From Amphiscolops sp. MND2022 (taxonomy: Eukaryota): a stretch of DNA of 64,000 bases. The DNA is taken from NCBI GenBank assembly GCA_964187785.1, contig OZ076409.1:14882001-14946000 (forward strand). The letters run 5' to 3'. Position 1 is the stretch's first letter. Each line of letters begins with the position of its first letter. The notes beneath the pieces were generated by a model. That model saw only the letters and a list, made by a program, of their open reading frames with translations, searched no databases and was not told where the DNA came from. Positions 1 through 59,764 of this stretch are shown piece by piece. The position numbers and the translations under genes are program-made.

Positions 1-311
1 TTAAACGGTACATGTATATTTCCGTGTGTTGCTCATTTGTATTGCATGTAGTTTAGATTTGTCAATTTCTTTCGTGACGTCATTGATTTGGCAGGTCTTT
101 GAACCTTACATGTATTGATCATTTCATTTTTGTGTGGCATAATTCTATTTGCGTGATTCGAAATAAAGTCGGCTGTTTTTATCGTTTCGTGGAGTTACAT
201 GTTGTTTGGGAATTAGCTGATTTATTGTGATGTTATGTGGATGGTGTTTCCCATCACAAGGAGGTTTTCGTAAGTCATTTAATATTTTCGAACTTCCATT
301 TAGACTAAATT

Positions 312-1034
312 CATCGTTTTGACATCCTCCAGCGAAGCTAGAGTATCGTGTCAGGCTGACGATAAATTCGATCACGATTTGATGGTAGTTTCCATCACAA
401 ATTCATCTCATTAATTGTTTTCATGTAAGTTCTGAATAATTGAATCGAGTTCATCGCTAATTCATCCTCTAGCCGAGCTAGAGTATTATGATAGCATGAA
501 CGTGAGTGCGTTCGCATTCTGATGGCATTTTCCATCTCCAATGCATCGCTAGTAAATATTGCATGTTGATTGGTCAAATTTTTGACTAAGTTCATCACTT
601 TTTCATCTCTCGTGTGTCTGAGATAAATTTTCATGTGATTTCATCCTTTTTCATCTCAAAATTTTTATGTGTTGTTTTTCTGGTTTTTTGGTCGTTTTTC
701 ATCCGTTTTACATCGTGTTTCGTCTTTTTGCGTATTTCATGTAGTTTTAAGTGATTGTTCATCTATTTTACATCTTCATGTTCGTTTTAAGTTGAAATTG
801 CATGTAATTGACTCGTTTTTGTGAATTTTCATCCGTAACTCATCGTGTGTTTAGAAATGTGGTTTTTCATGGCTAAATCGTTACGTTTACTTTGTTGGTC
901 TTTCTCAGTGCGTTTCTAGCTGCAGTAATCTCATGAATGAGGAAATCAGGATATGTTTTCGGTGTAGGGTTCTCGCGTAACCTGTACCTACTCTGATTGT
1001 TTCTAGACGGTCTAGAACTCATCCTTCCCTCATC
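312..1034 (-). repeat. Array of GATG-N7-GATG motifs (CATC-N7-CATC on +) in the pol tail and 3' noncoding region of element A
   Basis: Exact CATC-N7-CATC at 312, 393, 452, 533, 593, 700, 760, 830, 1020, plus an N6 variant near 642. Confidence 0.85.
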
Positions 1035-5960: not shown

Positions 5961-5966
5961 AAACCC
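5957..5966 (-). promoter_or_regulatory. Putative -1 ribosomal frameshift site G GGT TTT at the gag/pol junction of A
   Basis: X XXY YYZ heptamer immediately before the gag TGA; the pol ORF is in the -1 frame. Confidence 0.7.
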
Positions 5967-7153: not shown

Positions 7154-9132
7154 TGTCGTACCTATGCTGTTGGGCCGGCTTTGAAGGACCTTTTGAGCTA
7201 GACGGCTGCAATTCGTTATTATTCTTGCTTACTATCGCCATCATTAAGTCCTTCAGTTGACTAAACTCCTGGTGTAACTCGTTAATTCGGCGTTCATAAC
7301 TTTCTTTTATTTCAGATAACTGAGAAGAGATATCTGAATTGTCGTTGGTGTCAGAATCATTTGAGTTTGCCTGAGCCCTGTCTGGATCTGTTGGAGAAGA
7401 TGTTTCTGACGAAGAATTTATGACTCTACCGCTCCTAAGTTCGGTACCTTGATCTGGGTTCATGTAGCCGAGAGAAAAGAATTATGAGTGAAGACTGGAT
7501 TATTTGAGATGCTGTTTGATGTATTTTACTGATTCAAATGGCTATCTCAAAATTCACTAATCTGAACTGAGATGTTTTAGAGATGAAGTCGTACAAGCAA
7601 GTAAGTCGTTAGGTGAGAATAAGGAAATTAGCAAAGTAGTTAGGAAAGTTCATCCAATTTTCATCGCAATCGTAGATGCACCAAGGAAATTACTCAGTTT
7701 CAGTTCTATAGTTTCTGAAGATGAAATAGAGATATATTTTCAAGTAGATTTTGGCGTGAACTATTCAACTGGATGGTAGCTTGTCGCAATTTGGTCTGAG
7801 TAATCGCTAATGGCGGTCCAAATTACAGCAGTTCACGTGTCTTTTCGGTTGTTAAGACGCTAAATCTCTTACCAACCTTCTCTCATTGGCTGTTACCAGC
7901 TGGTGTTAAAATGGTAAGTCACGTGACCGGTGTTGTGAACTGCCGCAAAGTGGCCACGCATCATGGTACATCTACATATGTTAATGGTGTTTAGTCATCA
8001 ATTTACAATGTCGCAATTGCCTGCACGCAGCATCATGGTTTCTATAGCAACTAAAATGAGCTCAAATCGTTCAATAACGCACTAATTTCAAGTCAATTTA
8101 AGATAAAGCACAAATCGGGATGGGAAAACGATGTTTTCCGCTTATTCGAGCGCCAAAACCAATGATTTAAAAATTGAAGATGGAAATTCGATGAACTTGT
8201 AAGAATATTTGCTGATTTTCAAGTCTAGTTTAGCTCTGGATGAAAATGCGATGAATGGTGGTCTTTCTCGCTCGAAAATCAACACAATTTAAACTGACGA
8301 TGATAAAAGGATGAACTCCACTTATAATTTGCCAATTTCCAGCACAGATTATAATGACGATGAATTCGGGATGAATTCAGTCGATAAACGCTAATTCTAG
8401 CACAATTGAATTTTTGGCGATGGGTTTAAGATGAACTTGTCAGTTAAAACAGCAAATACCAAAGCAATACAAATTGGCGATGAGTTTAGGATGAACTCAC
8501 CAGTTAAAACACCGAATACTAAGGCAATTCAATTTAGCGATGAGTTTAGGATGAACTCATCCACTAAAATGGTTAATTTTCAGCACGAACGAAATCAAGA
8601 TGAATTAAGGATGGGTTTACTAAACAAATCAGATAACCAGCACTTTCACTCTTTTTTAGGATGGATTAAGGATGTACTTTCTCATTTCCCTTCTACGCTA
8701 GTGAATACGATGATTAAAGGATGAATTACTGTCCTCTAAGAAATGAGAAGCACATTGAAATTTCTTTACATGAAATACAACGATGAATTTAAGATGAAAT
8801 TACTAAAATAAGGTCCCATAAAATCCGCTGATGGATTAGTGATGAAAAGTCAGTTTAACGTCCCAATCGTTGTTCATATGCAATTCCGGAGATGAAATTG
8901 CGATGAACTTCATTCAAAATAGCTCCAAATTGAATCCGCTGATGGATCTAATGAATTTATCAGTCAATTCGGGTTCATCGTTAAGTCCGCTGATGGACTA
9001 GCGATGAACTTCATGAAAGTGTTGTCACGACTACAAGTCCTGAGGCGGGGAGCTAGTAGAAGTTAACATTTCGTCTCTCTTGTATCTCTCGGTCCAGTTT
9101 GACCCGAAAAACTTCTCTCCCTTGTCGTGACA
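7154..9132 (-). repeat. Probable 5' LTR of A (~2 kb), including the gag start
   Basis: TGTC...GACA termini and an adjacent PBS. No second copy in the window, so the outer boundary is inferred. Confidence 0.62.
8119..9006 (+). repeat. 60-bp-periodic array of GATG-N7-GATG motifs with largely non-conserved spacers
   Basis: Exact motif at 8119, 8179, 8239, 8299, 8359, 8419, 8479, 8539, 8599, then 8660, 8709, 8782, 8830, 8891, 8992. Confidence 0.92.
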
Positions 9133-19222: not shown

Positions 19223-19296
19223 ATTCAATTCAATTCAATTCAATTCAATTCAATTCAATTCAATTCAATTCAATTCAATTCAATTCAATTCAATTC
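19223..19296 (+). repeat. (CAATT)n microsatellite, ~15 units
   Basis: Perfect pentamer run. Confidence 0.97.
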
Positions 19297-19416: not shown

Positions 19417-21255
19417 TCGAAAAATGCTATTTCGTTAAATGAAAGCTAAATTTACGCTGATTGCGAAAGCCCATTTTGCATGAAGTTTCAACACTCCTCT
19501 TTGCTCCTGATTTCCACCGAATGATGAAAAATTTCTGTCAACTATGCAACTGTCATTTATGCAACGAGGCAATTCGAAAACTCGCAATCATGACATGTTT
19601 GGTGGTAAAGCGTGACTCGACAGCAACGTAGAATTAAGAAAGAAAGGACAAAATCAAAACGTCAAAGAAGTTAACGGAAGTTTGAAAAATAAGCGTTTTC
19701 TGACCAAACAGCATGATGTCGCAACCCAGGAATTGCGTGGGACCCGTGGTGCAGCCATAGTGCAGACAAACAGTCCAACAACCACGGCAAACTCTAAAAG
19801 CTGAAATGTGACCCAAAAACTTAAACTGATGAACTGACATTTAATTTTGTCTCCTATTTGGTTCATCATGAAGTTTTGTAAATATAATATTTAAAAATTG
19901 TTTGCTCTAAATGAAACCCTCCCTGATGTGCTACTGAACCCTAAAACTTCATTGAGAGCCTTCCTTAGCTCGTACAATGAATCACCCCATTGTCGAATAA
20001 GATAATTTGGAAGCTTTAATACATTAGGAATTGTCCCCATATAGTAACCTGTATCTTAGCGTGGTACCACTATGCGGTATCATGCGGATCGAGGAGTGGC
20101 ATATACTCGTCACTATGCGGATTTGTCAATATCACTATGCAGCATTATACGTCTCGGGGTGTGAAACATACTCGTCACGATGCGCTTTTGTTGGGGACAT
20201 TATGCGGCATCCTGCGGAGCGAGTAGTGACGCATACTCGTCACTATGCGTTTTCTGCAGGACCATCTATACAATGTGAATATGTGAACTAGTGCTATTGG
20301 AAACCATCTCAAATACATTCTGTACGTTATCCTAAGCATTTTCAAGGGTTCTTTAGTCCATTTTCAAACATATTTTGAATGTCATGTAATTGAGCTCATG
20401 TTATAAAAAGTATGACGTTATTTTGACGCAATTTTCTTTTTACCTGTTCCCAGCGATGACTCTGATAAAAAAAGAGTGTCATGATATCGTTTTTGGAGCT
20501 ACTTTATAGTAGATTGAAAAACTAGATCATTAAAAAACTCAAACGTCAGCAAGTGCAGTTGTCTTTTCTACACGACTGTAAACCTTTGATAACATTGTCA
20601 TACTCTCTGATCTTGTTCTTTTCGAGTATACAAGGAAATTCAAATTCTTCCTAAAAAACCTGAAACTATTTTTTCACCTGAAGCAATATGGGAAACAGAG
20701 GTAATAGATGTTCTAGAAGATTGAAAAACCCCTTCCCCAGATAGAAAAGTAGAAGTAACTCAAGTAGAAACACCCAATACAGGTAACGAATTTTTGACTA
20801 ATCTTGATACTGTAGTTCAAGAAAGTTTAGGTGAAAACAACTTTGAGAATCAGCCAACTGAACGCAGTCAGATAAGCAACGAAATTCAAGTTTGGACCCA
20901 AATTATGGAGCAAAAGAACAACGATAGGATTGGAAAGATGAGAGAGGAAAGGGAAAAAAAACTCGAAACAATCGTAAAGGAAATAAAGTCTAACAAAAGC
21001 GCATCAACAGTAACATATCCGAGGTCAGAAACCAATGAAATGCAAGATCAACAGCTGTCGGGATCCTAAACAAATAAGTCTCAGGAGTTCGCGCATCTAA
21101 CAACGAGAACTCAGACTCTGAAAACGATGATTATCCTCTTAGAGCCTCAAAAATGAAATTTTTAAAACATCCTGCGAAACCATTATTCCAAAACGAATCA
21201 GATATAGATGTAACAATACTTTCTAACGAAGAATCAGACAAAGAGGATTATCACA
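19417..21255 (+). repeat. 5' LTR of C (shared portion), ending ...TATCACA and followed by PBS GGGTGACAGGAG
   Basis: Aligns by eye along its length with 33500-35356 with scattered substitutions and small indels. Homology stops at the CA before the PBS. Confidence 0.88.
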
Positions 21256-22336
21256 GGGTGACAGGAGCCAACCGACTACTCCACACACAAGGCTCTCAAA
21301 AACTAAATGCCACAGTAGGATCACATGCAGACAAACTTGTCAAACTTGACATCAAAACCCCTTGACCCGGTTAATCAAATCGCCTTAGCAATAGAAAACT
21401 GGCGAGCAAGAACTCCTCACAGTCACTTTTTCACCCAAAAAACACATTAACATTTAACGGAAAAAAACGAGAAAAATGAAAAATTCGAATACTTCGAATC
21501 CTGTTTCACACAACACTTCGAATGCAACTAAACCTAACAGAGGACATGAAAATTAACCATTTTCACGCCCACCTCAGGGGTTTGGCGCTGAAGACATTCA
21601 AGAACATACAAGCACGACTTTGGAAGACATTCTAAAAGTTTTCGGACGAAAATATGTCAAACCAGAGTCCAGTGCATCAACAAAGCATAGATTCAACAGA
21701 CTCTCATTCGACCCAGAAAATCAGAAACTCCCAGATCTTCTAGAAGAACTTCAGGAGAGTGCCGCAAAAAGCGTTTGGGGATAACGCCCATCGAATGATA
21801 GAGAATTTACTCTATGCGAAAATGCCTCCCCACCTTATGAAGTCAATTAACCAAGCCTACCTCGAAAATGTCACAACGATCAAATCGTCAAACATCTTGA
21901 AAGAAAGATGGAATCAAACGGTCTAGAGGCAGACGAACCCCTTGTCAAAACTCAAATGACTGTTACCAAAAAGGAACAAAACACTGAAAAACCCAACAAA
22001 AAACAAAATGACAAAACCAAAAAACAGACTCCGAAAACAGTACCCAATAAAACACTCAAAAATGACCAATGCCGTTATTGCGAAGATGCCAGCGACATGA
22101 TGGCTGACTGCCCTGAATTAGCTAAACAGCGTAAAATAGAAGAAGACCTGGATGCACCCAATGCCCTATTTGCAAAACCCCATGAAAAAATTGCTATTTT
22201 GGTGCCAATATGGATAATCGACCATCAAATGGAATTTGACAGAAGCACAAGAGAAAGTTTTCGAAGAGTACAAGCAAGTTAAAAAACCAGTCAGACCAAA
22301 AATGGAACGACATCAACGTCGAAAGGTTTAAACTAG
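20688..22336 (+). pseudogene. gag: gag of element C (starts inside the LTR), ending at slippery site T TTA AAC TAG (22327-22336)
   Basis: Fragments 20794-21069, 21153-21365, 21908-22282 with a degenerate knuckle CRYC..MMADC; similarity to gag A (KINHFHAHLRG..AL.TF). Confidence 0.8.
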
Positions 22337-25300
22337 AAACGCCACGCCTTGACACAAAATCATCACAAAGACCAAACCTAGCTGATGACTGACAGCATCA
22401 GCTGAGCCCAAAACCCACAAAAACACCATTCTTTGGAAATGATATAACAACACAAATTTCTCAATAATCAACACTGGAAACTTCACCTGAAGACTTATAC
22501 GAAATCTTACACGATGCACCAGACAACTACTTCACAAAACAACAGACCACCCTGAAACCGACTCAACCCTAGAATTTCACCACACAACAAAAACCACATC
22601 ACAGTAAAAACTTCTTGCGATAATAAAAAACGACCCTTATTGGAAGAGGACCTCACTGAACACATAAAATTTGACACGGAACGGAACTTATCATACCTCC
22701 CAATTTCAACATCCTTGACATTGAAGCGAAAACGCCACAAGCACTACATTCGAATGGACTTCGAAAAACTGACACTTGATGGTCTTTTTGATACCGGGGC
22801 CCTTACAAGTGCAATCTCCGAACAAGACCTCAATAAAATCAAGTTACTAGCAAATAAAGCAATAAAAGAAACCGGTCCTCTACTAAACTTCCAAACTATG
22901 GTGGCCAATGGACAACTAGAAGTCCCAATTGGTACAGTTCTACTCAAATTTGAAGTGGCTGACTTCATGTTAAAAGAAAATTTCATCGATATGAAAAACA
23001 CCCCAAATCCATTAATCGGATTGTGTTTCCTTCGCGCGAAAACCGCAATTTTCGATGTCATTCAAGGCATCCTAACATTCCCGTATCTTTCAATGCAGCT
23101 CAAACCTGACACCCAAATATCAATACAACAGGCAACATGATTGTTGCTGAAAATATCTATACTTTAGAACCAGTCGAAACTCTCGCCATTGCAGGCATAA
23201 TGCCCCACCTGATGGATCATGACGCTACTGGAATAGTCACTCCATCGCAACAGTTTGAAAACCATGATAGCATTTTCATCACTGCATCACTCAGTCCTGT
23301 GAACAATTATGCTATCGGGTATCAAATGTTTAATTTTTCTAAACTACCATACACAAAAACAATAGACACCCATTTAGCGGCGGATTTCAAGATACTGACT
23401 CCAGAACAAATCAAACACATACAGCCAGTAGACCCAGCACTACTATCCTTCATGATACAAAATGAAGAAACAACAGAGGTCTAATGAATGAACTCCTAAA
23501 AGTACGCCGAAAAATTCAGAACAGGAAGCATACTGGTTCCCTACCCCTGAAGAACCAGGTGATCCAGCAACATACACTCCAATTCAGCAACGTATCTACA
23601 ACGAACTCCTCGAACTCAAAGAACTCGAGAAACTAAACCCACATGATAATGAAACTTTGACTGGTCTGATACAACGCTCAGCCCCGATGAACGACAAGAA
23701 AATGAAGAGATCCTCCTTGAGTTTTACGATGTTTTTGCTGGACATCGATTTGATATCGGCAAAGGTCGTGAATTCAAAGTAAAACTCACCCCCAATGATA
23801 AGAGACCTGCGTACAGCCAAAGTCTGCCAACGCTGATCAACTTCAAAAATGATGTCACAGTAGAACTTGCACTTCGGTTCAAGTATGGTATCATTACAAC
23901 TCTACCTTTTTCCAATATGCAAGCCCAATTTTCGCACAATGCAAACCTAACGGGCGCCTAAGACTCTTAGTAAACCTCAGGAAAATCAACAATCTCATCA
24001 ATGGAGATTATGCCAACAACAACCACCCGGTAAGCACCTTATCGGATGCAGCCCAACACATGGCAGGTAAAAAACTTTTCTGCAAACTGGATTGCTCTCA
24101 GGCTTACCACAGCTTTCAGATGGTAGACTGCCAATCCTTTCAAATGCTCGCTTTCAATTTTGCAAGCACAACTTTGCTTATCGCCGTCTCGCCCAGGGTC
24201 TCAGCATATCACTTTCTGCCTTTTCAAGCTTTATTAGAGAGTATCTGGACAGAGCAATTAAAGCAGACCAATGTGCCCAATATGTCGATGACATTGGCAT
24301 AGCGGCAAATGAAACAAAACAATTGTGTACAAATATCAAAACTGTCTTCGAATGTATACGCAATGCGGGATTGAAACTCTCCATGTCAAAATGCCATTTT
24401 GGAGTCAAACAAGTCGACTTTCTGGGATGCACAATCACACCAGATGGAGTGGCACCTCTATCCGACAAAGTGAAAAGTTTCTTCTCAAAACATTGCTTTC
24501 CTAAATCAAAAATGGCGTTACAAAGGTATATAGACTTTTAAACTATTTTTAAACTATTACCGAATTTATATACCACGCCTTTCGGAACGGCTCTCTCCGT
24601 TCTTCAAACTCCAAAGAAACTTCAAAGAAACTACCAAATTCTATGAACAAACAAAGTTAGTAAAAGACTTCAAAATCCTCAACAAACTCCTGGAAAATTC
24701 TTGCCAGTTAGCGTTGAAACAACCACTGAAAAACAAGCAACTTATAGTCATGTCCGATGAAAGTTTCACAGCAGCAGGATATGCTATCATGACCGAAGAC
24801 GACCTGAACCAAAAACAAAAACTCCAATCCAAACGCAAAACATATGCACCTAAAGCGTTTGGATCAAAAACCATCAATCCAACACAGACAAAATTGTCAA
24901 TTTCTGCAAAGGAATTTCTTTTAATATATTTTGCAATTGTGCGGACACCTCATGTGAGGAGGCACCTTCCAAGTAATCGTGTTCACAGACAATCGGCCTG
25001 TCGCCCGGTTCTTCCTAACAAAAATGATACCTACATCACTCTGGAAAACCTGCGATTATGTTTTACAAAATAATTTCGTAACCGCATATGTCACAGTGTC
25101 AATGGATACCGCTGCAGACTTTTTATCTAGAAGAGAAGTCGACCAAACCGAAAAATTAGAAAAGACCATTCGCAATGATATTCACACGAAAGCGATTGAA
25201 GTGAATATTCAATCATCTGCCATTGTTGAGGAAGAGCAAATCTATGTTCTTCCCGATGATGAAATTGACAAAAATCAATTATGGGAAGAAAGACAAAACA

Positions 25301-27001
25301 TCCGAAATCAAGCTCAGACTGAGTTACACAATGACACAGAGAATGACGTTTCTGAACTACAACAATTCCACAAACCTACACCGGTACTTTTCTCCTGCTC
25401 CTCAGGATACTTTAAAGACAATGCAAGAATCCGGTTTGTGCAGAATAATAACATAGTCCTCAGAAACCTGAGAGCAGAAACAGAAGGTAACTTTTTTGAC
25501 GATAATGAACTGGCATGAGACTACAGATACCAGCATTACCTACAAAACATAACACAAATAGAGATTAAACAGGAAGTTCTTACACGCAAATACTACACGG
25601 ACAATGGAAACATATCTCACTACCAAGTCTTTCTACCAATCCAACTCCTTGATGAATTTGTTCAGGCCCTGCGTGGTCACAATTCAAACCACCCAGGGAT
25701 CACAAAGATGATACAAGACGCAAGACAAAAATATTACTACCCATGTATAGCAAAATACATGAAAAAATAGGTCACTAACTGCCAAATCTGTATCCAAACA
25801 AAACAAATCAACAATGATCTCCTCAAGACAGAATTCCTTAATTGTCCAGAATGGGATCTTGGCCCAGAAGACCTTTTACAAATGGATATCTTACCCAACC
25901 TCCCACCTAGTGGAGATTATGACAACATCATCACGGCAAAAGATTTTTTCCAGATATCTGTTTGCTTACCCTGTACCACGCATCACTGCAACAGCAGTAT
26001 CAAGGGTAATTATGGATATATCATGCGAATACACATACCTACCAACAACGATAATCACGGATTTGGGAACTCAATTCAAAGCTCAAGTAACCCATGAAGT
26101 TGCAGCTGTGCTAGGAATTGAACTCAGATATCCAACAATGAAACATACCCAAACAATAGGACTCCTCGAAAGAACTCATTCCTCAGTCAAAACACACCTA
26201 AAAGCCGCAACAGGCGTATTTAGGAATACCTGGCATAAATACCTCCCATTGGCAGTCCTTAATCACAACACAACAAACTATACATCACTCGGTTGGAAGC
26301 CTTCACGGGTCTTCCATGGTAGAATACCGCACAATATCCTAGGCTATAAACTCGAATATAACCCTAATCCAAGATACCAACCGCAAGCAGATGTAGCGGA
26401 AGAAACTCAAAAATGAATGAAAACTCTTCCAGATCAAACTAAGAAGAACATCATGCAATCTTACTTTAAATACAAAGCCTTCTATGACCGAAAAGCGAAA
26501 GCAGCTCCGCTTGAAACGACGGATTACTGTTACATACTTAACCCAAAGGCTGATACACAAGCAACAAAAAAGCTATTTCGAGAAATCAGATGGCGCGGAC
26601 CATTTAAAGTAGAAAAAGTACTCCCTAACAATAACTACATTGTCCGGAGACTTGGAAATAATGAAACTGAGGACACTGATTATACCCCAATCAAAATGCC
26701 TGAAAATAGACGCCCACCGCCCGTGGATCTTCAAAAAATAGTGGGAAGAGCCCAGTGGAACAGACCACCGAACCATACAAAAACCATGCAAATTAAATTC
26801 CTCTACAAATCTCTGAAGATGACCATGATACCCAAAAAACTCAAAAAGAATCCAATAACCCATCAGAAGATGATTTTCAAAAACCACCAAAAAAATCCCA
26901 AAATTCCCCATTGCAAGAAGAACCCGTTAAGTACCCGTGGTGAAAAATACAACTTACGTCCCAATCCCAACCCAAACTATTCTGACTCACACAGATATTA
27001 A
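22337..27001 (+). pseudogene. pol: pol of element C, many stops and frameshifts
   Basis: LFDTGA, CKLDCSQAYH, QYVDD, MSDES, ITDLG, LLERTH, GPF, terminal KYNLRPNPNPNYSD. Confidence 0.92.
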
Positions 27002-27192
27002 GAAAACAATCGCAGAGGAAATTTGCTTTCCGTAATTACCTTCTCAATCTGCACTATAGTGTGCAGCTAAGCTTACTCGTTTACTTTTACTTGACTCACA
27101 TTGATCACATAGAGAAATATCTAGTGACAACTACTCAAACCAACATAAAACAAAAGAAACAAGTAAACATAAAGTTTCAAAGAGAGAAGCAA

Positions 27193-30100
27193 TCAGTTCT
27201 CCTTAGTTTTTGAAGATTTCTGACAAATCTTTTTCGAATCCTCTCCTTGCTCCGTCCTTGAGCACCGACTGGGGGAAACACTGACGCGTCCCAAAATAAG
27301 ATCAGGAGAAGGAGTACTATCGACACTACTAGTCCGGTTTTCACTAGGTGTAGTAGTGGAAGAAGTCACTGCAGGTCTCTCTAACCAGAGAACAGCCTTC
27401 CTGTACCCAGTCTCTAACTTCCCTTGTAATGTCATTCTCCGAGGAATACATCTTTTCAAGAATTTCCAGATTGAAAATTTTTTATCTGACAGCAGCTCCG
27501 CCCCTCGTCCCAAAAGACGAAAAACGCGACTAATAGCTCCAGCATCTCGAAATAAACTTGATACATGCGGCACCGATTAGTAGGAAATCTGCAGACTGAC
27601 CACACATGACACGAATGAGCTCTTATCGGACTCAAGAATATGATTCGGCACCTCAAAAATAGGGGAGACCTCCACTATTGGGGCAAGACATAAACATGAG
27701 TTTGAACAACTGTAACAGCTCAGGACGACACTGGACCTCATAGTGCGTAACAATGAATTGAATCCAATCGTCATAGTCAGGAACCGTCCCAGTACGTAGT
27801 TTGGATACGAACGACCGGTATTGACTGACAGCTTTTACTTTGTCACTTGCCGAAAATAAATCGACTGCCACAAAATGGATAGACAACTTCTCAATAGCAG
27901 ACACATAAACATCCTCAGGGCTCCCTACGATCACCGGAGAACAGCAGAAAGTCCTCTGAGTAAATCGGATTTTACAATATCATGCGTCATTAGCTGTTTA
28001 AAAAACGGCCTTGCAAAAACTCACAGATTGCTCTATAAGTTTGCCAGGGCGAGGCAGCTTACTAGACGATAATAATCCTCTTTCAGTATGAACTGATCTG
28101 CAGCTTTAAATGGTATTTCAGTAGAGTCCAAATCCAAAGCAAGAATGGAATTCCAGTCCGAAATGTTCCCTAGAGTGCTATCGGGCAAATTATTTTGCAA
28201 CTGAGAATAGGTAAACACGGCAAATTGACTGAAAAGGCGGAACCCGCTGTCGAGTCGCTTTTTAATCCCTGAGAAAGCAGAATCATCTGAAACACACCAA
28301 ACGATTACAAATAAAACGCCAATGTACAACAAAAGGAACTTATTCGTGGAATTAACCGACTAATACGAACAAACAATCATTTAATTGGATACAAGAAGTT
28401 AATGAACACCCAACAAGTTTTCTGTTCTAATGCGCTGGTTATGCTGCATTGCACTGATCGAGCAATGACAACTATACGTCACTAAGCGGTTCGAGGTGTG
28501 ACGACTATACGTCACTATGCGGTTAGAGGTGTGACGACTATACGTCACTATGCAGAAATGAGAATAAAAGTGTGCGGCAGTAGAAAGTGCCAGAAAATAG
28601 ACACAAATGCCACTGCAGGACGGAAAAAGAAATGACAACTACAAGTGTAAACGTTTTTGAAATCTGACTGAGAGGAAACTTTAGACTTATTCACAAAAGT
28701 AGGAACCCGATAGAATCTCCATCAAAAAATGTTGATACACAAATGCGAAGAGTTGTATCTGGAACTCCTAGTACTGGTTGAAACTGTCTTAAATGGAAAT
28801 CCCCAGAAGGTGAAATAACTAACAGTGATCAAGGACGCATCTGATGATGAACAATCTGGCAAGATAAGCCGTATTCAGCCGAAAACATTCGTCAAGTGTA
28901 TTGGGCTGAAAAAAATACGTAGGATAAGTGATAGCAAAACTAACTATACAAAATAATGTGAGTAGAGATAGTTACCTCTTCCAGGAGAAAGTCCAAAATT
29001 GTTCTGAAATCGTGACTCTCGATAATTTGGGCAGTCGTTGTAGCAAGGCTGCGCACGAATTCACTTGCGCCAAGTGAATTGCCAATCGATGGAGCTTTTT
29101 AGTCCCAGATAAACGAGAACTTAGACACTCATAAAGTTCATCTTCAAATCCAATTAAAGAAACGCAGAATGGGAGTTCTTCAAAGAAGAGACTGAGGAAA
29201 GTAGCCATGAGAAAAAGGATCTTTCGTGGTAACAACAGTCCTCTCGGTGCCCCGCCGATGCAAACTCGGTGCCTTGTACTTTCTATCCAAAAGCAGAGAA
29301 TGACGTAAGATGCTGTGGTTGTGTGCTGTACAGCAAGAGAAAAATAGCCAGAGGACGACATGGCCTTGACACAGTAGTCCATTAGTTCTCGGAACAGGTA
29401 AACCAAAGTTCCCTGTAAATGGCGAGAGTGTTAAAATTTTATCTAATTGACTAATGTTCACAAAAAACATGGTGCTAATATCACTTAAGGATTCAAAAGA
29501 AAAAGAGAATTTTCAACTTAGCAGAAGAAAATTGTACAAAAAACGGGACTTACAAAGATACGCTGCTGACTCCAATTTTGCACAGACAGGCAGTCACTTG
29601 ATGTTAAACGGACTAGTTCATCGTACATCCCTGTCAGACTGGCTATGTTTCTTCCATATCTTAACCCAAACTCCAGGGTGTTGATCTGTGATAGTATCCT
29701 CTCCGTTGGACTGGTAGTCACACTGAAGTCCGGAATCGACTGCTGTCCTACAAGTGACCGGTGAGAATCAAGCTGAAGTGGTATGGGATCATTATTCTTC
29801 GCTTCCTTTTTCGCACCCTGTAGTGCAACACCAAGCAATTCTTTTTCGTCCCGGCCATAGAGAGTCATCCCCGGTATCTCCAGTCTTATGCGATGCTCTC
29901 TGATCAAGTGGGAGTCAAAGCAATAATGGGAGAAGAACTTCAAGCTTCCGCGATTCATGAAAGACAGCTCAACCTCACAGACACGGCACCTTTTGCACGG
30001 AGTCTTGTCTTTAACTAGGGGTCCTGTTGCTGGAAACTTCAAGACAGGGTGTCGCTTAAACATGCTTCCAGTCAAGGAGTCTTTTGGTCGTCTTCGTTTC

Positions 30101-30870
30101 CCTCTAGCCATTGTAGAGCCTTCATCAACCCCATGGGGAACGATGTCAGTGCTGGTATTGGCAACCATTTCTTCTTGGCTAGAGGTTGTTGCTAAAGTGG
30201 TGGGGATAACATCGTCTACGACCGTAAGAGACAAAGGTTGAGAGAGATCAGCATCAACTCCAGTGACGAATGACTGAGGGATCCTGCCGAGAACATTGCC
30301 TGCCTGGTAATGCTAAGGCTTGGGAGAGTAGTCACTGGATAAATAATCTCATTCGGAAGAACTTCGGTAGAAGGTGGATTCTTTATACAACCCTGAATAA
30401 TAGGATTATTTGGCACTTGTGTAGAGGAACTACCTTGAGCATGGAGTGAGTTGTCGTGCTGCCGGATTAACTGGCCAAACCGTGGCGATGGAGCTTGAGA
30501 AACATCAGGAGGATCCAAACTCCCAGGAAGGTCTTGGGCAAAGTCACCCAATGATGTCTCCATAGGTTTGGCAATGGCAGAAGATCCAGTAGCAACTGGA
30601 CTGGTCCTAGATGGTCAATTTTCTTTAGGAGGTTCATTTAGTTCGTGTCTTTCGCCAGGAGAGCTTGGGAGAGCAGGTGGCGGTGATGTTCCAACTGTTA
30701 TTTCTTCAACAATCCGTGAAGGGGCATCAACAGGAGAGTCTCCAACTCCAATAGGCTTCAATAAATGAGGCGTTCCGACTTTTAATGAAGTATAAACCTT
30801 TCGAGTGAACTAGAAGGCGTGACCTGAGCCAATCCTTGTCCAACAAAAACAAATTATCTGTTGTCTGAAT
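27193..30870 (-). pseudogene. Antisense spliced Zn-finger / hAT-transposase-like gene of element C (decayed)
   Basis: Finger remnant RCRVCEVELSFMNRGSLKFFSHYCFDSH; LFRELMD..SGYFSLAVQ..LCFW; PELLQLFKL..SC; GT-AG intron 29553-29413. Colinear with the 55262-59533 gene of D. Confidence 0.78.
28466..28556 (+). repeat. 3 x 33-bp tandem repeat (GACGACTATACGTCACTATGCGGTTAGAGGTGT) within the antisense gene of C, probably intronic
   Basis: Three consecutive units visible. Confidence 0.85.
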
Positions 30871-31589
30871 AGAAAGAGAACGAATCTTGCAAGCGAAAAC
30901 GTTTTACTACTACCTCAAACTGGACGCGGGACAAGAAAGAAAAAGAAAACGGAAGTAGCTTAGAAGTTAGGAACGGAAACGTTTCGAAAAATTTCGAATC
31001 TGGCATAGATATCATACTAGCCATTTTCAATCTGCAGGCCTAGCCACCCTATTCGACAGACAAAACATATTAGAATACAAAAAAAATGAACTAAATACGA
31101 AATGAAACATGTTGGACTGACGGGATGAGAGTTCAGGTAGGATATCTGTACCCTAGAAATCGTCGTGACGGTGTGGAGCTTGGTCTTTTTGAGACCTACG
31201 TTTCCCTGAAGGACTTGTTTACTTGTACAAAAGTAAATTAAAAGGGGAATTTTAAGATAAAGAATAAGATAAACGAATGGGAAACAACTGGGTAGGAGAT
31301 TATGCAAAAGGATTGAATCTGCAAAGACTAAAATTTGACTAAATTACTGGAATTGACTGAAAACAGTTACTATAAATACCAAGGAAAGTCGATGCTCGGC
31401 GTTAAGAAGAAAGGCAAGAAGCAAATGAGACAGTTTTGCGCAAGTTAGCGAAGAAAATACTCGAATCTGATTGGTTGATTAAATATCAATCACTTCTGCC
31501 AGCGTGATTGATTGACTCATTCCAAAATTTGGAACTGATGCAGTTGTGATACTATTATACACGAAAGTATGCCTCATTTTGCGGAATTA

Positions 31590-31830
31590 CAACAGATAGT
31601 ATGCGGCAGTATGCAGATTTACAGCAAAGACTACGCGGCAGTATGCGGATTGACCAGTAACAAGTATGCGGCAGTACACGGATTGACTAGCAACGAGTAT
31701 GCAGCAGTATGCGGATTGGCTAGTAACGAGTATGCGGCAAGATGCGGATTGACTAGTAACGAGTAGGCGGCAGTATGCAGATCTACAACAAAGAGTATGC
31801 GGTAGTATGCGGATCGATTAGTGACGCATA
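31590..31830 (+). repeat. ~7 x 33-bp tandem repeat (GAGTATGCGGCAGTATGCGGATTGACTAGTAAC-like)
   Basis: Periodic units; the translation repeats YAAVCGLTSNE. Confidence 0.9.
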
Positions 31831-32599
31831 CTCGTCACCATGTGGTTTTCACTACATGCACACGAAGAGATGAATTAGTGCTGCCAATGACTAAAAACGA
31901 GTAATGGAGCTTCATTATGCAATAGAACTGAAGAAGCTACGTATTCATTGCTACAAAAGACATGTGATACTGCTGATATGATGCATATGTGTGTGTTAAG
32001 CAAAGTAAAGAACCGAAATTTGGATGAAACTGGTTTAGATGAAACTTTCCTTGAGCTTCTGGCTTTTCCTTAATTCAGTCATGTAGTTTTGAACAAGTAC
32101 ATTTAGATTTTTTCTTTCGATGTGAAATTTCAGAAGTTAAGTTTCCGTTTTATTGAATCGGAGTTAGGTTAAAGTTGTTTACATGTCATTTGGATATTGG
32201 TGAAATGCTGTGAAATAAGAGAATAAGGTAAAATTCGTTGAAGTGCTAAATAAAACACCTTTTATGGGAATTGTTTCCAATCTACTGTGATTCAAACTCG
32301 TGACAAGAGTCTCCACAAAACCCTTATAAGGGCGATGAGGAAATCAAAAATCATGACATTCAGTTTTTCCGAGGAGTCCCACCAGAGACGAAAGAAAAGG
32401 AAAAACTCATCACCATATGGTCTTTACCTCAATCAAAAATCAGTTGATTTTGTTATCACAAACGTTTCTGTAAAATAATCCACCGCAGAATTAATCACTG
32501 AAAATCATAACCTAACCTGAAGCCAAAGATAATAATCTCCGAGTAAAGATGAACAACTCGCAATTCGACATAGACGAGATGTTCAACTACCTAAGATCC

Positions 32600-33500
32600 T
32601 CTCTATAATTGACGTGTCGAGCGAGTCTGGCAAAAAATTCATAGTGGAGCCAGGAAACGTGCAAGAATTGGACGAGAGGTTTCGAATCGGAGGCCCCAGT
32701 ACAGACGCCTTGTCAGCCTTTGCGAGGGCGGCAGCAGCAGCAACCCTTTTCCGTCCCACTCGCTTTCTCACCAATCGCAAGACGTCACTGTCACTTCGGG
32801 ATCCCAGATCGAGGGGCAATTATTAGAGTTAATCGACGAATATCAAAGTCACCAATCAATCTCCCCAACATCGTTCATCGATACCGAGTTTGAGGAGTCT
32901 CCAGATTCGCCTGACGACAAAGGTATGGAGAATAGCTTCTCAATGAACAGCTACGGTAGGCCCTCTGCTGCGATCTTGCCGACTCCAAGAGGAAGAGGCT
33001 GGGGTAGGGGTCTGGTCTCCGGTCCAATGCCTACCTATCCACCTCGTTTTAGATCGGGATTAAGTAATTTTAATGTGATAGGAGAAAATATGCAATAAAT
33101 ACAAATGGACATTTTCAAAAACAGATACATCATTACTCAAAATGAACCAACAGTGACCAATCCAGCCATGTCAACGGTCAACATTACTAACCCCGCGCAG
33201 CTGATGATACAGATCCCGCCATTCATGCCAAGCTTTTTCAAAGGTTCCAGGCGGCCATCCAGTTCAACCGTTGCCACAGGAAGTGTACTCGGTACAGATT
33301 ACTCACAGCACGAGTGTGCGCTTGCTAGACGCGAGCTAAAGGAACTTGTACAGATTGTCACCCACTGTGATGCCGAACGTTGCCGGATTCTGTAACTGGT
33401 GTGGTAGAACGTAGAATGAATTTGGTCTGGAGATGCTAGGAGAGTATCTTCTAGCGATGGCGTACGATGCTGAGACCGTAAGAGACCGAAATGTGCGACT
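32600..33500 (+). pseudogene. Decayed accessory sense ORF of C, homologous to ORF 53441-54220 of D
   Basis: Frame at 33385 reads GFCNWCGRT*NEFGLEMLGEYLLAMAYDAETVRDRNVR. It aligns without gaps to TGCMVCGHSADAIKREKVDWYVSRTKSRDEPEYITQIR (C, C, G, E, Y, E, R identical). Confidence 0.6.
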
Positions 33501-35356
33501 CGAAAATGCTATTTCGTTAAACGAATGCTAAATTTACGCTGAACGCGAAAGCCCAATTTGCATGAAGTTTTAACGCTCCTCTTTGTTCCTGATTTCCACC
33601 GAATGATGAAAAATTTCTGTCAACTATGCAACTGTCATTTATGCAACGAAGCAATTCGAAAACTCGCATTCATGACGTGTTTGGTGGTAAAGCGTGACTT
33701 GACAGTAACGTAGAATTAACAAAGAAAGGACAAAATCAAAACGTCGAAGAAGTTAACGGAAGTTTGAAAAACAGGCGTTTTCTGACCAAACAGCATGATG
33801 TCGCAACCCAGGAATTGCGTGGGACCCGTGGTGCAGCCATAGTGCAGACAAACAGTCCAACAACCACGACAAACTCTAAAAGCTGAAATGTGGCCCCAAA
33901 ACTTAAACTGATGAACTGACATTTTATTTTGTCTCCTATTTGTTTCATAATGAAGTTTTGTGAATATAATACTTAAATTTTGTTTGCTCTAAATGAAACC
34001 CTCCCTGATGTGCTACTGTACCCTAAAAGTTCATTGAGAGCCTTCGTTAGCTCGTACAATGAATCACCCCATTGTCGAATAAAACAACTTGGAAGCTTTA
34101 ATACATTTGAAATTGTCCCCATATAGTTACCTGTATCTTGGCATGGTACCACTATGCGGTATCATGCGGATCCAGGAGTGGCATATACTCGTCACTATGC
34201 GGATTTGTCAATTTCACTATGCAGCATTATACGTTTCGGGGTGTGACACATACTCGTCACAATGCGCTTTTGTTGGGGACATTATGGGGCATCCTGCGTA
34301 ACGAGTAGTGACGTATACTCGTCACTATGCGTTTTCTGCAGGACCATCTATACAATGTGAATATGTGAACTAGTGCTATTGGAAACCATCCCAAATACAT
34401 TCTGTAAGTTATCCTAAGCATTTTCCAGGGTTCTTTAGTCCATTTTTAATCATATTTTGAATGTCATGTAATTGAGCTCATGTTATAAATAGAATGACGT
34501 TATTTTGACGCAATTCTATTTTTACCAGTTCCCAGCGATGACTCTGAGAAAAAAAGAGTGTCAATTTTTCTTTTTTTGGAGCTATTTTATAGTAGATTGA
34601 AACACTAGATCATTCAAATCTCAAACGTCAGCAAGTGCAGTTGTTTTTTCTACACGACTGTAAACCTTTGATAACCTTGTCAGACTCTCTGATCTTGTTC
34701 TTTTCGAGTATACAAGAAAATTCAAATTCTTCCTAGAAAACCTGAAACTATTTTTTCACCTGGAGCAATATGGGAAACAGACGTAATAGACAGTCTAGAA
34801 AATTAGAAACCCCTTCACCAGATAGAGAAGTAGAAGTAACTCAAGTAGAAACACCCAATACAGGTAATGAAACTTTGACTAATTTTAATACTGTAGTTCA
34901 AGAAAGTTTATGTGAAAACAACTTAGAGAACCAGCTGCAACTTAGAGAACCAACTGAACCGAGTCAGATAAGCAACGAAACTCGAAAGTTTGGACCCAAA
35001 TTATGGAGCAAAAGAACAACGATAGGATTGAAAAAATGAGTGAAGAAATGGAGACAAAAGTCGAAGCAATCTTAAAGGAAAAAAAGTCTAACAAAAGCTC
35101 ATCAACAGTAAAAAATCCGAGGTCAGAAACCAATGAAATGCAATGTCAACAGCTGTCGGGATCCAAAACAATTAATTTTATAGGAGTTCGCGCATCTAAC
35201 AACGAGAACTCAGACTCTGAAAACGATGATTATCCTCTTAGAGCATCAAAAATGAAATTTTTAAAACATCCTGCGAAACCATTATTCCAAAACAAATCAG
35301 ATATAGGTGTAACAATACTTTCTAACGAAGAATCAGATGAAAAGGATTATCCCACA
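33500..35356 (+). repeat. 3' LTR of C (shared portion), containing the gag 5' fragment 34770-35359
   Basis: Second copy of 19417-21255; ends ...CCACA with no PBS after it. Confidence 0.88.
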
Positions 35357-35899
35357 TGAACATTTGCCGGCGCACTTGAACCGCTCAATCTTCAATTCGA
35401 CTAAAACATGCGGGATAAAGTAGCAATTGAATTTATCCGAGATAATTTTGTCACAAAAGAAAGGTGGCCTAAGCTTGGTTTTGGAATCTTCTGAAAGCTA
35501 TAGACATAACACAGAGAGCAGAGACCCCCACCTATGCTGAACTACAGCAAGGACAGCAAAAAAAGTGAAAGGTGATTCCAAACAAGGTTTAGCAACAACA
35601 AGAAGAACTCAAAAAACTGCTGTGAGTTGAACTTTGGAACTACTTTGATTATTTAAAACCTCCGAACTAATTCATTGTCTTCGTTGGAAAAGACGGCAGT
35701 TATTGTTTTTCAAGAGAAATGTCAATTGTACTTGAGTTGTTGGTTAGTCCCTTTGTCTTCAAAATGTGAGTTTCAGATCTTTGTTTTGCCTATGTAATCT
35801 TCGTGGCTAAATGGTTTTCACACTTTTGCGGGTAGTGACTAACTTTGTAATCGGTTTCTTGGTTATGCTCATCCCATCCTTTTGCTGGCAAAAACAACG

Positions 35900-51819: not shown

Positions 51820-52395
51820 CTAGATGTCGTGAGCAGTGCGATATGCGTGGTCACATTGTTCATTGATCAAAGTCGTTCTGGTCCTGGTATTTTGCTGAAC
51901 TTCGGAATGATTTTCCGGTCTCTCAACTGGGACCTCCCATCCCCTTCTAGTCTCACGGCCCGATCCGGCCATTAAGGCATTTTGAATCTGAGGCAATACC
52001 TGACTCTTTATAGCCTCATTAATGGCCCTTTGGATCTGTGAGCTGACATTATTGAACATGTCATCCATCTCTCTCGAGATCCTAGAGTTTAATTCACTTG
52101 ACAACCTGTTTATCTCGGCTTGAGAATCTAGGCTTGCTGAGTTATGGCCATAACCGGCACTTGTCCCAATTCCAAGGTTCTCATTTTCTGAATGAAGATT
52201 TGTTTCCTCATCCTCCAAATTATTACTTGCAACGCTATTTTGTCTCCTAATGGAGGTCCCGTTAAGGCTGTTATCCCTCCCTGATCCGTTGAAATGGTTC
52301 TCGCCTAGCATAATATCTAGATTTTCGAAGTCCGAGAAAATCTCTAATCCTCTAGATTTTCTTGCCTTCTTTTGCTTTCTAGTGGTAGGCATCAA
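51820..52395 (-). other. gag 5' fragment (191 aa) carried in the 3' LTR of D
   Basis: ORF stops 5 nt past the ...CTCACGACA terminus at 51825; basic N-terminus plus coiled-coil as in gag starts of A and C; same arrangement as 34770-35359. Confidence 0.72.
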
Positions 52396-53440
52396 GATCG
52401 AACCGAGTTGAAATATTGAATTCGTAAACTCAGAAATTTAACAGTGTAACCGTTTTGATATTTACTAACATGAATCAAAATGAAATTGTGTCTTCCCCAA
52501 GCGGGGTAGTAGTATATATACCGCACGGGGAATGACAAGCACATTTTTTACATAATTAGCAAATCACTTGATTCCATACCTCACAGGGAAATCCCCGACT
52601 AATACATTTTTTAGGGGACAACTTAGGAATGGAATTCATAGACCGTTTATCTAAACACCAACATCAAACAACATGTCGGCTAGCATCGTGACAATTATGG
52701 TGTAAACAAACTTCACTGCTTACATATTTTACAACTATGCAAGGTGCAGGCACGTGCCGACACAAGTTCATTTCATAGCATCTTCATAAATGGAATGCAT
52801 TACGGAATTCTAATAATGTAGCTGTATTCTCAAAGCACTATTTTCAATGAACGCCCGAACAGGGACTAAGTCCATAACATGTACAGCACGAATAAGGGGG
52901 CATGGAAAAGAGGTTAAATTATCCCCTTTTGTTAGGCAAGCAACAAGATTATTTAAACTACAAATGCGTATTAAATAGCTCCGGATAAATATTGGCTCAT
53001 TTAAACAACAAAGGAAATATTATATCAGAATAGGCCGAAACCGGCCACTTGACTAAAGGGCCATTATTAGAATAGTACCGTTCAGGCAATAGGCCTTATC
53101 CGGCCATTATAAACAAAGCATTTATAATTAGCAACAGGGGAGTGCTGTGATTGGTCAGCGGCCGTACCGAAAGTCACATCGCCGAGAAGGGACGTTTTCT
53201 CACTTGAACACGTTTCCTTCTCGCGATTAACTTGCTTTTGCACTTTACCGCTTTTCACTACAAATTAACACGTCGTTATACTGCACAGTATCTACATTCT
53301 AATACAACATCTCAATTTGGATTTTCCAAATTGTAATTTAACAGACTAATATAATGCACCAATATATAAAATACATCCGGTTAACTAGAAAGTTGACAAA
53401 AATAATGATCCAATAACTATAAGTTTTAGTCAAAAGAGTT

Positions 53441-54220
53441 TTAAAATGTTGGAAGTGTACCTGGGGCGATATCTTGGCCCACTGCTGTAGTCGTTATAGG
53501 AGTTCCGTCACAGGCGGCAGCCTGCGACACTGCGGGTGTTATAAATAAAAAGGCCCCAGCATTCAACCCGTTCATATAGGCGTCTCTCCTAATCTGTGTT
53601 ATGTACTCTGGTTCGTCCCGTGATTTGGTCCTTGACACGTACCAGTCGACTTTCTCTCTTTTGATGGCATCTGCTGAATGTCCGCACACCATGCAGCCCG
53701 TGTATAAGCTTTCGCTGACGTTTTCGTACGGCAACGTGTTTTGCACGTGATATGACGCGTGAAATCCACCCATAGCATACGGCACAATAGGAGTATCTAG
53801 GCTCGGTCCCCTCTCGTGAGGTGGGGGAGACATGGGAGATTCTGCCACTGGTATGATGGTATTGCAGATTTCAATTCTTGATTTGGTAGACCTTTTCGGC
53901 GGGGCATAACACATTTCACGGTCGAAATACTTCGGGCCCAATTTCGGGGTTACATTTGCTTTGGAGCAACTTGGACCGTCTTCTTCATTGTCGTCTTCGG
54001 GTTCCTCTACAGTCATAATTCTTCCCCCAATAAGCATCGGGCTGGCAGTCACCTCTTTCTCAATTCTGGAAATCAGCTTTTCAGTATCAGTAGAATAATC
54101 GGTCTCCCATTCTGAAGCTTCGCTTTCATCGCTAGATAGGTAGATCACTGATTCTCCAGACATGTCCGAGTCTGATTCTTCCAAGTCGAAGAGTCTCTTA
54201 GCCAGATTGAATTTATTCAT
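53441..54220 (-). CDS. Accessory ORF (259 aa) of unknown function: acidic N-terminus, HxxxH...CxxC motif
   Basis: Intact ATG-to-stop ORF; homologous remnant at the same position in C. Confidence 0.7.
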   Translation of the reverse strand: MNKFNLAKRLFDLEESDSDMSGESVIYLSSDESEASEWETDYSTDTEKLISRIEKEVTASPMLIGGRIMTVEEPEDDNEEDGPSCSKANVTPKLGPKYFDREMCYAPPKRSTKSRIEICNTIIPVAESPMSPPPHERGPSLDTPIVPYAMGGFHASYHVQNTLPYENVSESLYTGCMVCGHSADAIKREKVDWYVSRTKSRDEPEYITQIRRDAYMNGLNAGAFLFITPAVSQAAACDGTPITTTAVGQDIAPGTLPTF

Positions 54221-55261
54221 TATGAATTTTTTAGCTATTTTGATGAGGATTGAGGCAACTGGTTAGAAGTAAGATTCTGAGCTGAATGAATTTATCAGTC
54301 TCGGGGTTTTAGCCGAGACGGGCCTTTTCCGAAGTTTCCAATTCAGCGGGAGAAACTTAGGTTGATCGTCTCGATTCGATGTAAACTTTTATGAATGGAA
54401 TTCTCAAATGAGCTTACGGTCTTTATTAATTGGTGTTTTACCCCTCATCTCAACAAGCATCAAAGGGGGTGTGAATAACTCTCAAGTTGTTGATATCAAA
54501 TATTTCTCTCTCAAGTGGGTAATTAACAACCTGCCTCACAGCAATTAGCGGCGTGCGACAAGAAAACTTCCCAAGATGGCTTTAGCCAATCAGAGTTAGG
54601 CTCTGATAAATTGAAAAATTAAATAATAAAATGGCGAAAATAATAAACCAAAAAATAATTCAAAATGGCGGATTTTTAACTAGAAATAACTAAGGAAACT
54701 GAACGAAAACAATAAAGTGTAACTGGTCAAACGGCCGGAATAGGCCACTAACTAAGTAGGTCGTAGATAACAAGGTTTTGTACACTTCGCTGGCAGACTC
54801 CATGTACGGAATAAATATGTAAATAATCCCATAATATTAGTCTGGTAATAATCTTCAGCCACGAACTCCAACTTCTAATTCTATTACCCCATTTCAATTC
54901 CAATTCAATTCCAATTATCATTCCATTTATTTTTCATTTGTAATTTTAATCTTCATCTCCATCTTCATCTTCATTGTCCGCTTTGTCTTTGTGTCTGTTT
55001 CGGACCTCGCCCTGCTTCATCCCCGAGCTCTTCTAATTCCCTTCTTCAACAACGTCCGGATTGGGACTTCGTCCAAAAGGCGCCTCCAACAGAATGTCTT
55101 CAAATACAGGTTGGTTTGATTTCCTTCTATTTTGAACTAGTTCAACTTGATCAGGGTTGAATTTGTTCACAAACTGCTTCCTGCCTCCACTAGTGAACGC
55201 GTGATAAAATCGTTTCACTCAAATTTTCAAAGCACTTCCGGAAGTTTTCTAATGCGGCGTA

Positions 55262-58200: not shown

Positions 58201-59533
58201 CTGCTTCTTTCCTAGGTCCAGAGCTTCGAATGGTCCCTCATCGTGGACGACTTCTTTGCAGTCAAATTGGAGCTTTTCCAACGATTGGTCAACGATTGTG
58301 AGTATTCTTAATCCACCAAGGTCCCTTTGGTCCGTTGTCCTTATAAGGATCGTTGATTTGTGAATTTCAGATGTCATCAGCTTCGCCACCCATTTGAGTC
58401 AGAGACGTGATGCCTCCTTCTTCCTTTGCGGCGAGGTCTGCAAATACATCAACCGCCTCTGCTCTCGTATCTTTCAGCCTGATACCGTGCCACTGGAGAA
58501 CGCCTGGTTCTTATTGATGGATTTCCAGATGAACCAGGGCAAGTTCATGGAAGACGAGGACTTTCTGGTGCGTCTCAAGATCTCTGGCAAAGTCACTTCA
58601 GCGAGTAACTTGAAAGCAGCTGGCCTCCACTTTAACAAGAAGTCGAGTAAGGCAGCCATCAGTAAGACCGCTGATCAGGCCAAGTCAGATTTTGTGGCGA
58701 GCGCCAGAAGTTACGTCAAGTTCCTGTTGTCACAAGTCCTCCAGCATACCGAACTCAGTTCTGATCTCATCAAAGGGTTGGCAGCGTTCGACCCATACAT
58801 CCTCTTCAAAAGACCAGTGGAAGTTGCCCTACGACATTTTGATTGCTTGTACTCCACGTTCCAGTTGCGTTTCTGGGTCTCCGAGTTCAATGAGTCAGCC
58901 TGCCGAGACGAGTACGTAGCCCTATTGGACTACCTCAGAAACAACCATTCCGCTGAATTTAGTGCTGCCAATGATTCCCCTGATCTCATTGATTTCTTCA
59001 TGAATTTGGAATTCCTTCAGTCTCGAGATCATCTTTGTTATTTGTTCAAGCTAAGCTGTCTTTGTATAACAACTGTCAGTCCTGAGTATCCTCCCGTTTC
59101 CTTTGGAAGAATCAATACAGCCATGCTTCAGTCCCGTTTGGTAGACGTGATTTTACCCTGCCAGAGTTATTTATCTTCTGATCCTGATTCCTTGTTGGCC
59201 TGCTGCACTGAATCCCAGCTTGAGAGGTTCCAGCAGTTGTCTTCTACTTTCGGGCAATCCGCTTTCGCTGCCGATTATGACCCTTGGCCTTTTGTAGACG
59301 GTTTTGGTCGAACTGCTATCTACAAGTCCCTTGTCGCTTCCCACCGTTCTGTGCTTTCTGGGTCAGAATTCCAGTTCCGTAGTCCCACTCTTGCTGATAC
59401 TTCTTCCGTCAAAGATGCTCCTGCTTACAGACTGCCTAGTGACAGTAAGAGAAGACGAATGGAGAGGGCCGTTTCTCGTTCTACGGCTTCATCTGTTGGC
59501 GACGAATCCTCAGCTAGTAGCCCTAAAGACTAA
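55262..59533 (+). CDS. Antisense multi-exon gene, ~1,290 aa: long disordered N-terminus, C2H2/BED-like Zn finger, hAT-transposase-like body. Exons 55262-57289, 57389-57874, 57971-58105, 58216-58297, 58371-59533; possible extra first exon 55094-55109 spliced to 55314
   Basis: GT-AG introns of 99, 96, 110 and 73 bp join all segments in frame with no stops (third donor GTTATG is weak). WCHMCKKNFSVKTKGAVEILRHHRTEKH; HFGVEFE..MSLRFW; LIKGLAAFDP; HLCYLFKLSCLC. Confidence 0.8.
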
Positions 59534-59764
59534 ATGTACATATGTATATATGTACTCTCAAACTGTTAACTTTGTTGATTTCTTTGTTAGATAATTTCTG
59601 CATTTCTGTTTCCTTTGCCCCGTATTTATTCTTCTGAAGGGGTTTTGTTGGCTGTCCCAATTATTTATTCAAAAGATTCGCCTTGGGACTAAAAGATAAA
59701 AGATAAAAAGAGAAAAAAGGCAAAACAATTCAGGGCTAGTTTCCTGAATCGAATTTAATTTTCT

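Follow-up and report, generated by a model that had tools for sequence, protein, structure and literature searches.

Can a retrotransposon recognize the DNA of its own family by means of a protein that it carries? The question is raised by a 64-kb stretch of contig OZ076409.1 (positions 14,882,001 to 14,946,000; here termed the window), which contains four Ty3/gypsy-type pol regions belonging to elements A, B, C and D (open reading frame list and Pfam). Element C has a short motif, repeated at about one helical turn, in its long terminal repeats (LTRs), in a putative intron and in a spacer, and on the opposite strand it carries a gene for a zinc-finger protein. The original prediction, made from the letters of the sequence, was that motif and protein form a self-recognition system analogous to that of the Arabidopsis VANC proteins. 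The motif observation is confirmed, and the self-recognition interpretation is partly supported. We give about an even chance to the proposal that the antisense protein binds paired sites of its own family on a single helix face and thereby controls its own promoter as well as the LTR, activation being the more probable effect.

The motif sites of element C go back to one ancestral cassette of ~50 bp, in which two TATGCGG words 10 bp apart are followed by GTGACG-N6-CGTCAC and, last, by TATGCG. Cassette sites are found in both LTRs, in the putative intron of the antisense gene and in the spacer 5′ of that gene:

20065..20259, plus strand: LTR motif array of three 65-bp units, each with a TATGCG pair (10 bp) and GTGACG-N6-CGTCAC; perfect palindrome at 20224-20245
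28432..28556, plus strand: array of the putative intron, one full cassette and 33-bp repeats of the palindrome half
31567..31850, plus strand: spacer array in which the 10-bp pair recurs in about seven 33-bp repeats; it closes with one full cassette, whose palindrome is at 31819

The amplified portion differs by site; it is the whole cassette in the LTR, the palindrome half in the intron and the direct-pair half in the spacer. Five cassette copies that were compared have 32-42 of 50 bases identical. Because they share one ancestral cassette, the three array sites are not independent accumulations.

Three of the four 16-mers, and the palindrome, had been located correctly. ATGCGGTATCATGCGG is found exactly at 20072 and again at 34154 in the 3′ LTR, ATGCGGCATCCTGCGG at 20202, and ATACGTCACTATGCGG, in the repeat of the putative intron, at 28507. 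The palindrome TAGTGACG-N6-CGTCACTA is exact at 20224 (also at 34306) and has a variant at 31819. The spacer 16-mer ATGCGGCAGTATGCGG has no exact match and represents only a portion of the consensus of the 33-bp unit; real variants of it are at 31601, 31699, 31732 and 31797. The overall range of 20070..31830 omits the 3′ LTR copy at 34147-34341.

The claim that the motif is family specific and noncoding also holds. Within the window all nine matches to CGTCAC-N-ATG and all seven to the TGCR-pair pattern are confined to C. TATGCG is present 14 times in the noncoding parts of C against 0.92 expected, an enrichment that overstates the independent evidence, as tandem duplication and shared origin inflate the motif counts. 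The right arm CGTCAC is found in 9/9 copies and both arms are perfect in five; from array to array the six-base spacer changes and the arms do not. The LTR array precedes a TATA-like box by ~145-340 bp and sits in the presumed U3 promoter region, where the position of the box suggests a promoter role:

20402..20408, plus strand: TATA-like box of the C LTR, ~145 bp 3′ of the array (sequence scan)
31468..31480, strand unassigned: CCAAT-like boxes of putative function, beside the spacer array; the spacer is flanked by the antisense gene and by a sense open reading frame divergent from it

Do other elements of the window have comparable signals? Each element was scanned whole (C without its 3′ LTR) for all 4- and 5-letter words, direct or inverted, with gaps of 0-20. 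Near-homopolymer words were removed before ranking, the frequency of each word gave its expectation, and every region was block-shuffled 15 times. A dyad of 10-11 bp is the top match in A, C and D, and each exceeds the best of its 15 shuffles. These dyads are GATG-N7-GATG in A (33 against 0.97 expected), TGACG-N6-CGTCA (4 against 0.02) and CCGCA at 10-bp spacing (4 against 0.03) in C, and GGCC-N6-GGCC in D (5 against 0.13). Element B showed no dyad exceeding its shuffles in this whole-element scan, and the non-element region gave one, probably derived from a local repeat. Motif discovery by family, suggested as a check on the self-recognition idea, has shown that A and D bear one-turn dyads of their own. 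There are three different words in A, C and D and one common spacing rule.

The dyads of A are distributed as follows:

7571..9006, plus strand: 17 copies upstream of gag, nine in exact 60-bp register
229..1034, minus strand: 10 copies downstream of pol, mostly in the opposite orientation
2903-5804: six copies in gag-pol coding DNA

Two occurrences are found in the remaining 55 kb. In the nine consecutive 60-bp units, the eight dyad columns are identical in 9/9 units and most other columns in 3-7/9. Compared with the upstream array, that behind pol has the inverse orientation, and the presence of dyads in both orientations fits recognition of double-stranded DNA.

The dyads of D have a different arrangement:

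51957, 53033, 53092, 54733 and 60014 (span 51957..60027): GGCC-N6-GGCC, three in the LTR, one in the spacer and one at the integrase end

All five matches to GGCC-N6-GGCC in the window are in D, and the other 15 spacings together give three. A T is found on the same side in 5/5, the flanks at the five sites are unrelated, and the sites are outside tandem repeats. The spacer dyad is midway in the spacer equivalent to that of C; both C and D have a site in the LTR and a site upstream of the antisense gene. Two dyads in the presumed D LTR are just 3′ of one TATA-like box and ~500 bp 5′ of another, and thus the direction of regulation is not readable from position. A second word of 19 bp, inverted and 89% complementary, is common to the D LTR region (53338-53356) and the spacer (54830-54848). 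A 273-codon open sense reading frame precedes the D LTR at 53441-54262 on the minus strand and has an acidic N-terminus and a CxxC-H motif; it gave no Pfam match, and the antisense gene diverges from it across a common spacer.

Perhaps the repeats are a neutral by-product, whereby template switching spread the cassette, slippage amplified it and the spacing is incidental. The common origin of the C arrays, the decayed state of this copy and the weak contrast in conservation between motif columns and neighbouring spacer columns fit this explanation, and family-specific tandem repeats behind pol, of unknown function, are common in Retand elements (PMC11963269). However, the A units lost similarity outside the dyad and kept the dyad exactly, the D dyads are neither tandem nor similarly flanked, and one spacing rule recurs in three families. 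A neutral origin is quite improbable.

Alternatively, the arrays may serve host transcription factors as enhancers that each family gained separately, and the antisense protein may act otherwise. LTRs commonly contain enhancer repeats to which host factors bind, and the C words TGACG, TGYGGT and ATGCGGG resemble what we take to be a CRE half-site, a Runx site and a GCM site. In addition, element A has a motif and no finger gene in view, and selection on its motif does not by itself identify the reader. On the other hand, three different host factors would be needed, all preferring one-turn pairs. Sites are also found 5′ of the antisense gene, in the intron and in coding DNA (six in A gag-pol, two of five in D); the C patterns are absent elsewhere in the window. 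We regard host enhancers as rather unlikely to be the explanation.

The antisense zinc-finger gene, proposed as the reader, is a real one. It belongs to a high-copy family (387 clusters) and is located equivalently in C and D:

29553..30865, minus strand: finger-bearing exon of C, with a low-complexity N-terminal part, a basic stretch resembling a nuclear localization signal, a C2H2 finger at ~29908-29988 and a helical domain; frame change near 30295
28976..29412, minus strand: putative middle exon of C, from splice signals; read-through homologues match 29461-29147
27196..28284, minus strand: last exon of C, interrupted by stop codons and shifts of frame, with homology to the D last exon
55262..59533, plus strand: antisense finger gene of D, open, with three exons

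The C finger exon shows 57-65% identity with seven intact homologues over ~250 residues (profile E 7e-71), and the C last exon scores 13.1 bits against profile A2, where the best of 500 shuffles reaches 2.5. The pairwise match of the C and D middle exons is non-significant, with the score reached by 23 of 500 shuffles. An intron in C (donor ~28975, acceptor ~28286) and its splicing are suggested by splice signals and by the parallel layout of D. One homologue, P0043, reads through the first intron position and thereby offers a natural template for the middle exon. Both genes end ~200 bp behind pol and have matching splice positions, with 25% identity in the finger region. As the C copy is decayed, any action on C would come in trans.

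The finger pattern C-x2-C-x16-H-x5-H is present in 101 of 156 homologues examined, and the predicted fold is confident (pLDDT 86.8). BED fingers have the pattern C-x2-C ... H-x3-5-H/C plus an upstream aromatic signature, and an H-x5-H spacing is matrin-like. The last ligands here are H-x5-H, and the structural match to BED is weak; the best structural neighbours are RNA-binding fingers, nearer matrin than BED. The Cys-to-His spacer of 16 is equal to that of the Hermes BED finger. Positions 7, 11, 12 and 16 of this spacer, likely recognition positions, differ by clade (90/149 rows); Hermes BED contacts bases at spacer positions 9-13 and 16 (PMC10368747).

The structural neighbours and the matrin-like spacing raise the question of whether the repeats act as RNA, i.e. 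as small hairpins, located 3′ in the genomic transcript, that a matrin-like finger would read for export, packaging or stability. The intron, spacer and 3′ LTR arrays are all within the genomic RNA, and five of ten folded pieces have z values of -2.3 to -3.2. For the other five (z -1.07 to +0.75), among them most of the spacer array and two LTR units, folding does not surpass that of shuffles, and an Rfam search gave no match. A single-strand signal is also at odds with direct repeats in constant helical register and with the two orientations in A. A role as RNA is highly doubtful.

A descent of the antisense gene from a hAT transposase is a lead only. Among Atlas look-alikes of the D last exon, 23/30 matches are PF05699 hAT-dimerisation clusters (the family being on 53-60% of members; score 0.92), and the top Foldseek row is Hermes, which is non-significant (E 1.2). 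Pfam found hAT domains in 0/113, the predicted model of low confidence (pLDDT 56) gave no fold match, and a sequence search of PDB gave no match. The Atlas and Foldseek leads could also mean that the antisense gene and internal arrays are what is left of a nested hAT transposon and its subterminal repeats, and short repeats do occur at hAT ends (PMC10368747). Yet the 25 longest pairs listed per region include no terminal inverted repeats that bracket the antisense gene in either C or D. The gene end behind pol and the splice positions agree between the two elements despite the low identity of the finger region, and the LTRs, which such an insert would not include, contain the motif as well. 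A nested transposon is extremely unlikely.

The preferred reading, recognition by the antisense protein, can be laid out as follows. A Ty3/gypsy lineage would carry a spliced antisense gene behind pol, encoding a nuclear zinc-finger protein that may be a catalytically dead hAT-transposase descendant. Each family would accumulate a half-site repeated per helical turn (TATGCGG at 10 bp plus the palindrome in C, GGCC at 10 bp in D, GATG at 11 bp in A) in the LTR promoter, around the antisense promoter and elsewhere in the interior of the element. As a dimer or oligomer, the protein would bind the pairs on one DNA face and would activate its own promoter and the LTR, and this would create a family-restricted positive loop. 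Finger residues and motif would diverge together and thereby insulate families from one another. If binding holds, activation seems somewhat more probable than repression. It should be pointed out that several observations weigh against this mechanism: the weak conservation contrast in C, the RNA-binding neighbours of the finger, the lack of a finger gene for A within the window, and the presence of two gene-motif pairs only (C and D).

More broadly, an animal LTR-retrotransposon lineage may have captured the DNA-binding part of a hAT transposase as a family-specific regulator. Dozens of finger classes and one-turn motifs would have co-diversified in one genome and would form a library of readers and sites for self-activation or for escape from silencing other than by methylation. 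This broader view is tentative, and we rate it below an even chance. Sequence-specific self-regulators are already documented for plant DNA transposons. If the view is true, a DNA-transposon protein was recruited by a retrotransposon, the arrangement suggests how many LTR families coexist within one genome, and a small programmable-looking DNA-binding family is supplied. Three words are predicted as targets, and both a candidate reader and the variable finger positions have been identified.

Element C itself is a decayed Ty3/gypsy element of ~16 kb with numerous stops and frame changes. Direct LTRs surround gag-pol, and the order is protease, reverse transcriptase, RNase H and integrase, as in Ty3/gypsy elements. 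The LTRs are 1.84-kb direct repeats (19421-21255 and 33503-35354) of 92.4% identity, with 120 mismatches per 1833 aligned columns:

19421..21255, plus strand: 5′ LTR, start uncertain by ~10 bp or truncated, terminal CA
33503..35357, plus strand: 3′ LTR; its copy of the motif array is at 34147-34341
21256..21275, plus strand: primer-binding-site-like sequence abutting the LTR end
20688..27001, plus strand: gag-pol with many broken frames; zinc knuckle, protease, reverse transcriptase, RNase H and integrase (Pfam and open reading frame list)
32536..33395, plus strand: broken sense open reading frame, function unassigned, preceding the 3′ LTR

Both LTRs end in CA and the 3′ LTR may begin with TG; the 5′ start is degenerate, and inspection of the LTR ends revealed no evident target-site duplication. 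No tRNA genes were found within the window. The 5′ LTR takes in the first ~570 bp of an apparent gag frame, assigned as gag from its position. The LTRs of C and D seem to hold the first 150-190 gag-like codons (20688-21255, 34770-35357, 51820-52437), with the primer-binding-like site inside the gag-like coding region in both; these LTR reading frames show no significant similarity to each other. Likewise, no homology was detected between the broken sense reading frame of C and the 273-codon frame at the equivalent place in D. An ATTCA microsatellite (19223-19296) is immediately 5′ of C.

The other pol regions (open reading frame list and Pfam) are:

1333-5978, minus strand: pol of A
~11040-16525, plus strand: pol of B
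59765-64000, minus strand: pol of D

Reverse transcriptase identity is 67% between C and D (129 residues) and 52% between C and A (134 residues), and B is distant. Intronless-looking open reading frames with C-type lectin and PAN domains are found between B and C at 17240-17860 and 18177-18641 on the minus strand (Pfam), and these suggest an animal host; the elements may resemble those of acoels. Among other sequences in the window, a unit of 110 bp whose ends are inverted TGTCACGAC separates A from B (9023-9132) and is possibly a short solo LTR or miniature element, at which no target duplication was seen. A decayed Bel/Pao-type fragment with DUF1759 (Pfam) is at 36000-38063 on the minus strand. 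A 132-bp inverted repeat at 51292-51825, likely a miniature DNA transposon, adjoins the D LTR end, and there are a 63-bp family and a 33-bp tandem repeat (47889-48213, 41272-41357).

How does the proposed system compare with known ones? No description of such a system was found in the literature, including that on animal LTR retrotransposons, with subscription papers mostly, and repeat databases, outside the coverage. The analogy drawn with VANDAL/VANC stands in layout. In PMC5735166, as here, there are an element-encoded protein and short family-specific motifs, tandemly multiplied, in introns, intergenic and terminal noncoding DNA. It does not extend to the chemistry, the removal of DNA methylation by VANC (PMC5735166). 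Changes between the C LTRs affect 10/130 CpG-context columns and 47/590 of the remaining C/G columns (p=1). The observed/expected ratio of CpG is 0.81 for C and 0.90 for the window. With no CpG decay in the LTRs, VANC-style demethylation is unlikely. VANC-type domains (DUF1985, DUF287) gave no Pfam match in single open reading frames, the last exon or the finger region. VANDALs are Arabidopsis MULE DNA transposons with a VANA transposase, whereas C is an LTR retrotransposon, apparently of an animal, with paired one-turn sites and a C2H2 finger protein that is a candidate reader only.

Transposase-derived proteins such as Spm TnpA activate cognate copies (bioRxiv 10.64898/2026.08.24.746577), and a supposed transposase-derived regulator acting on cognate motifs would be similar. 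Those proteins serve their own DNA transposon or the host, whereas capture by a retrotransposon would apply here, the origin being a lead only. BED fingers bind short paired repeats cooperatively (PMC10368747), and the Hermes finger with its subterminal repeats resembles the present case in its equal Cys-to-His spacer and exactly phased short site pairs. The differences are the final ligands (H-x5-H here, H-x-C in Hermes), the weak structural match, the lack of terminal inverted repeats among the pairs listed, and the location of sites in promoters instead of ends.

Foamy viruses have a 3′ accessory gene, Tas/Bel1, with its own internal promoter, whose product regulates the LTR. Antisense genes are also present in HTLV (mentioned in PMC11963269). 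The proteins are unrelated to the one described here, no env was seen in C, and C has family-specific repeated dyads.

The closest architecture is that of Retand, a plant Ty3/gypsy element with a long region between pol and the 3′ LTR, an antisense open reading frame predicted to encode a DNA-binding protein, and family-specific repeats. No function is known for the antisense TRP28 frames and tandem arrays (PMC11963269). TRP28 (PF04195) gave no Pfam match here in single open reading frames, the last exon or the finger region. In place of TRP28, the present elements have a spliced zinc-finger gene, and the motif cassette is found in the LTR as well, with a fixed helical spacing.
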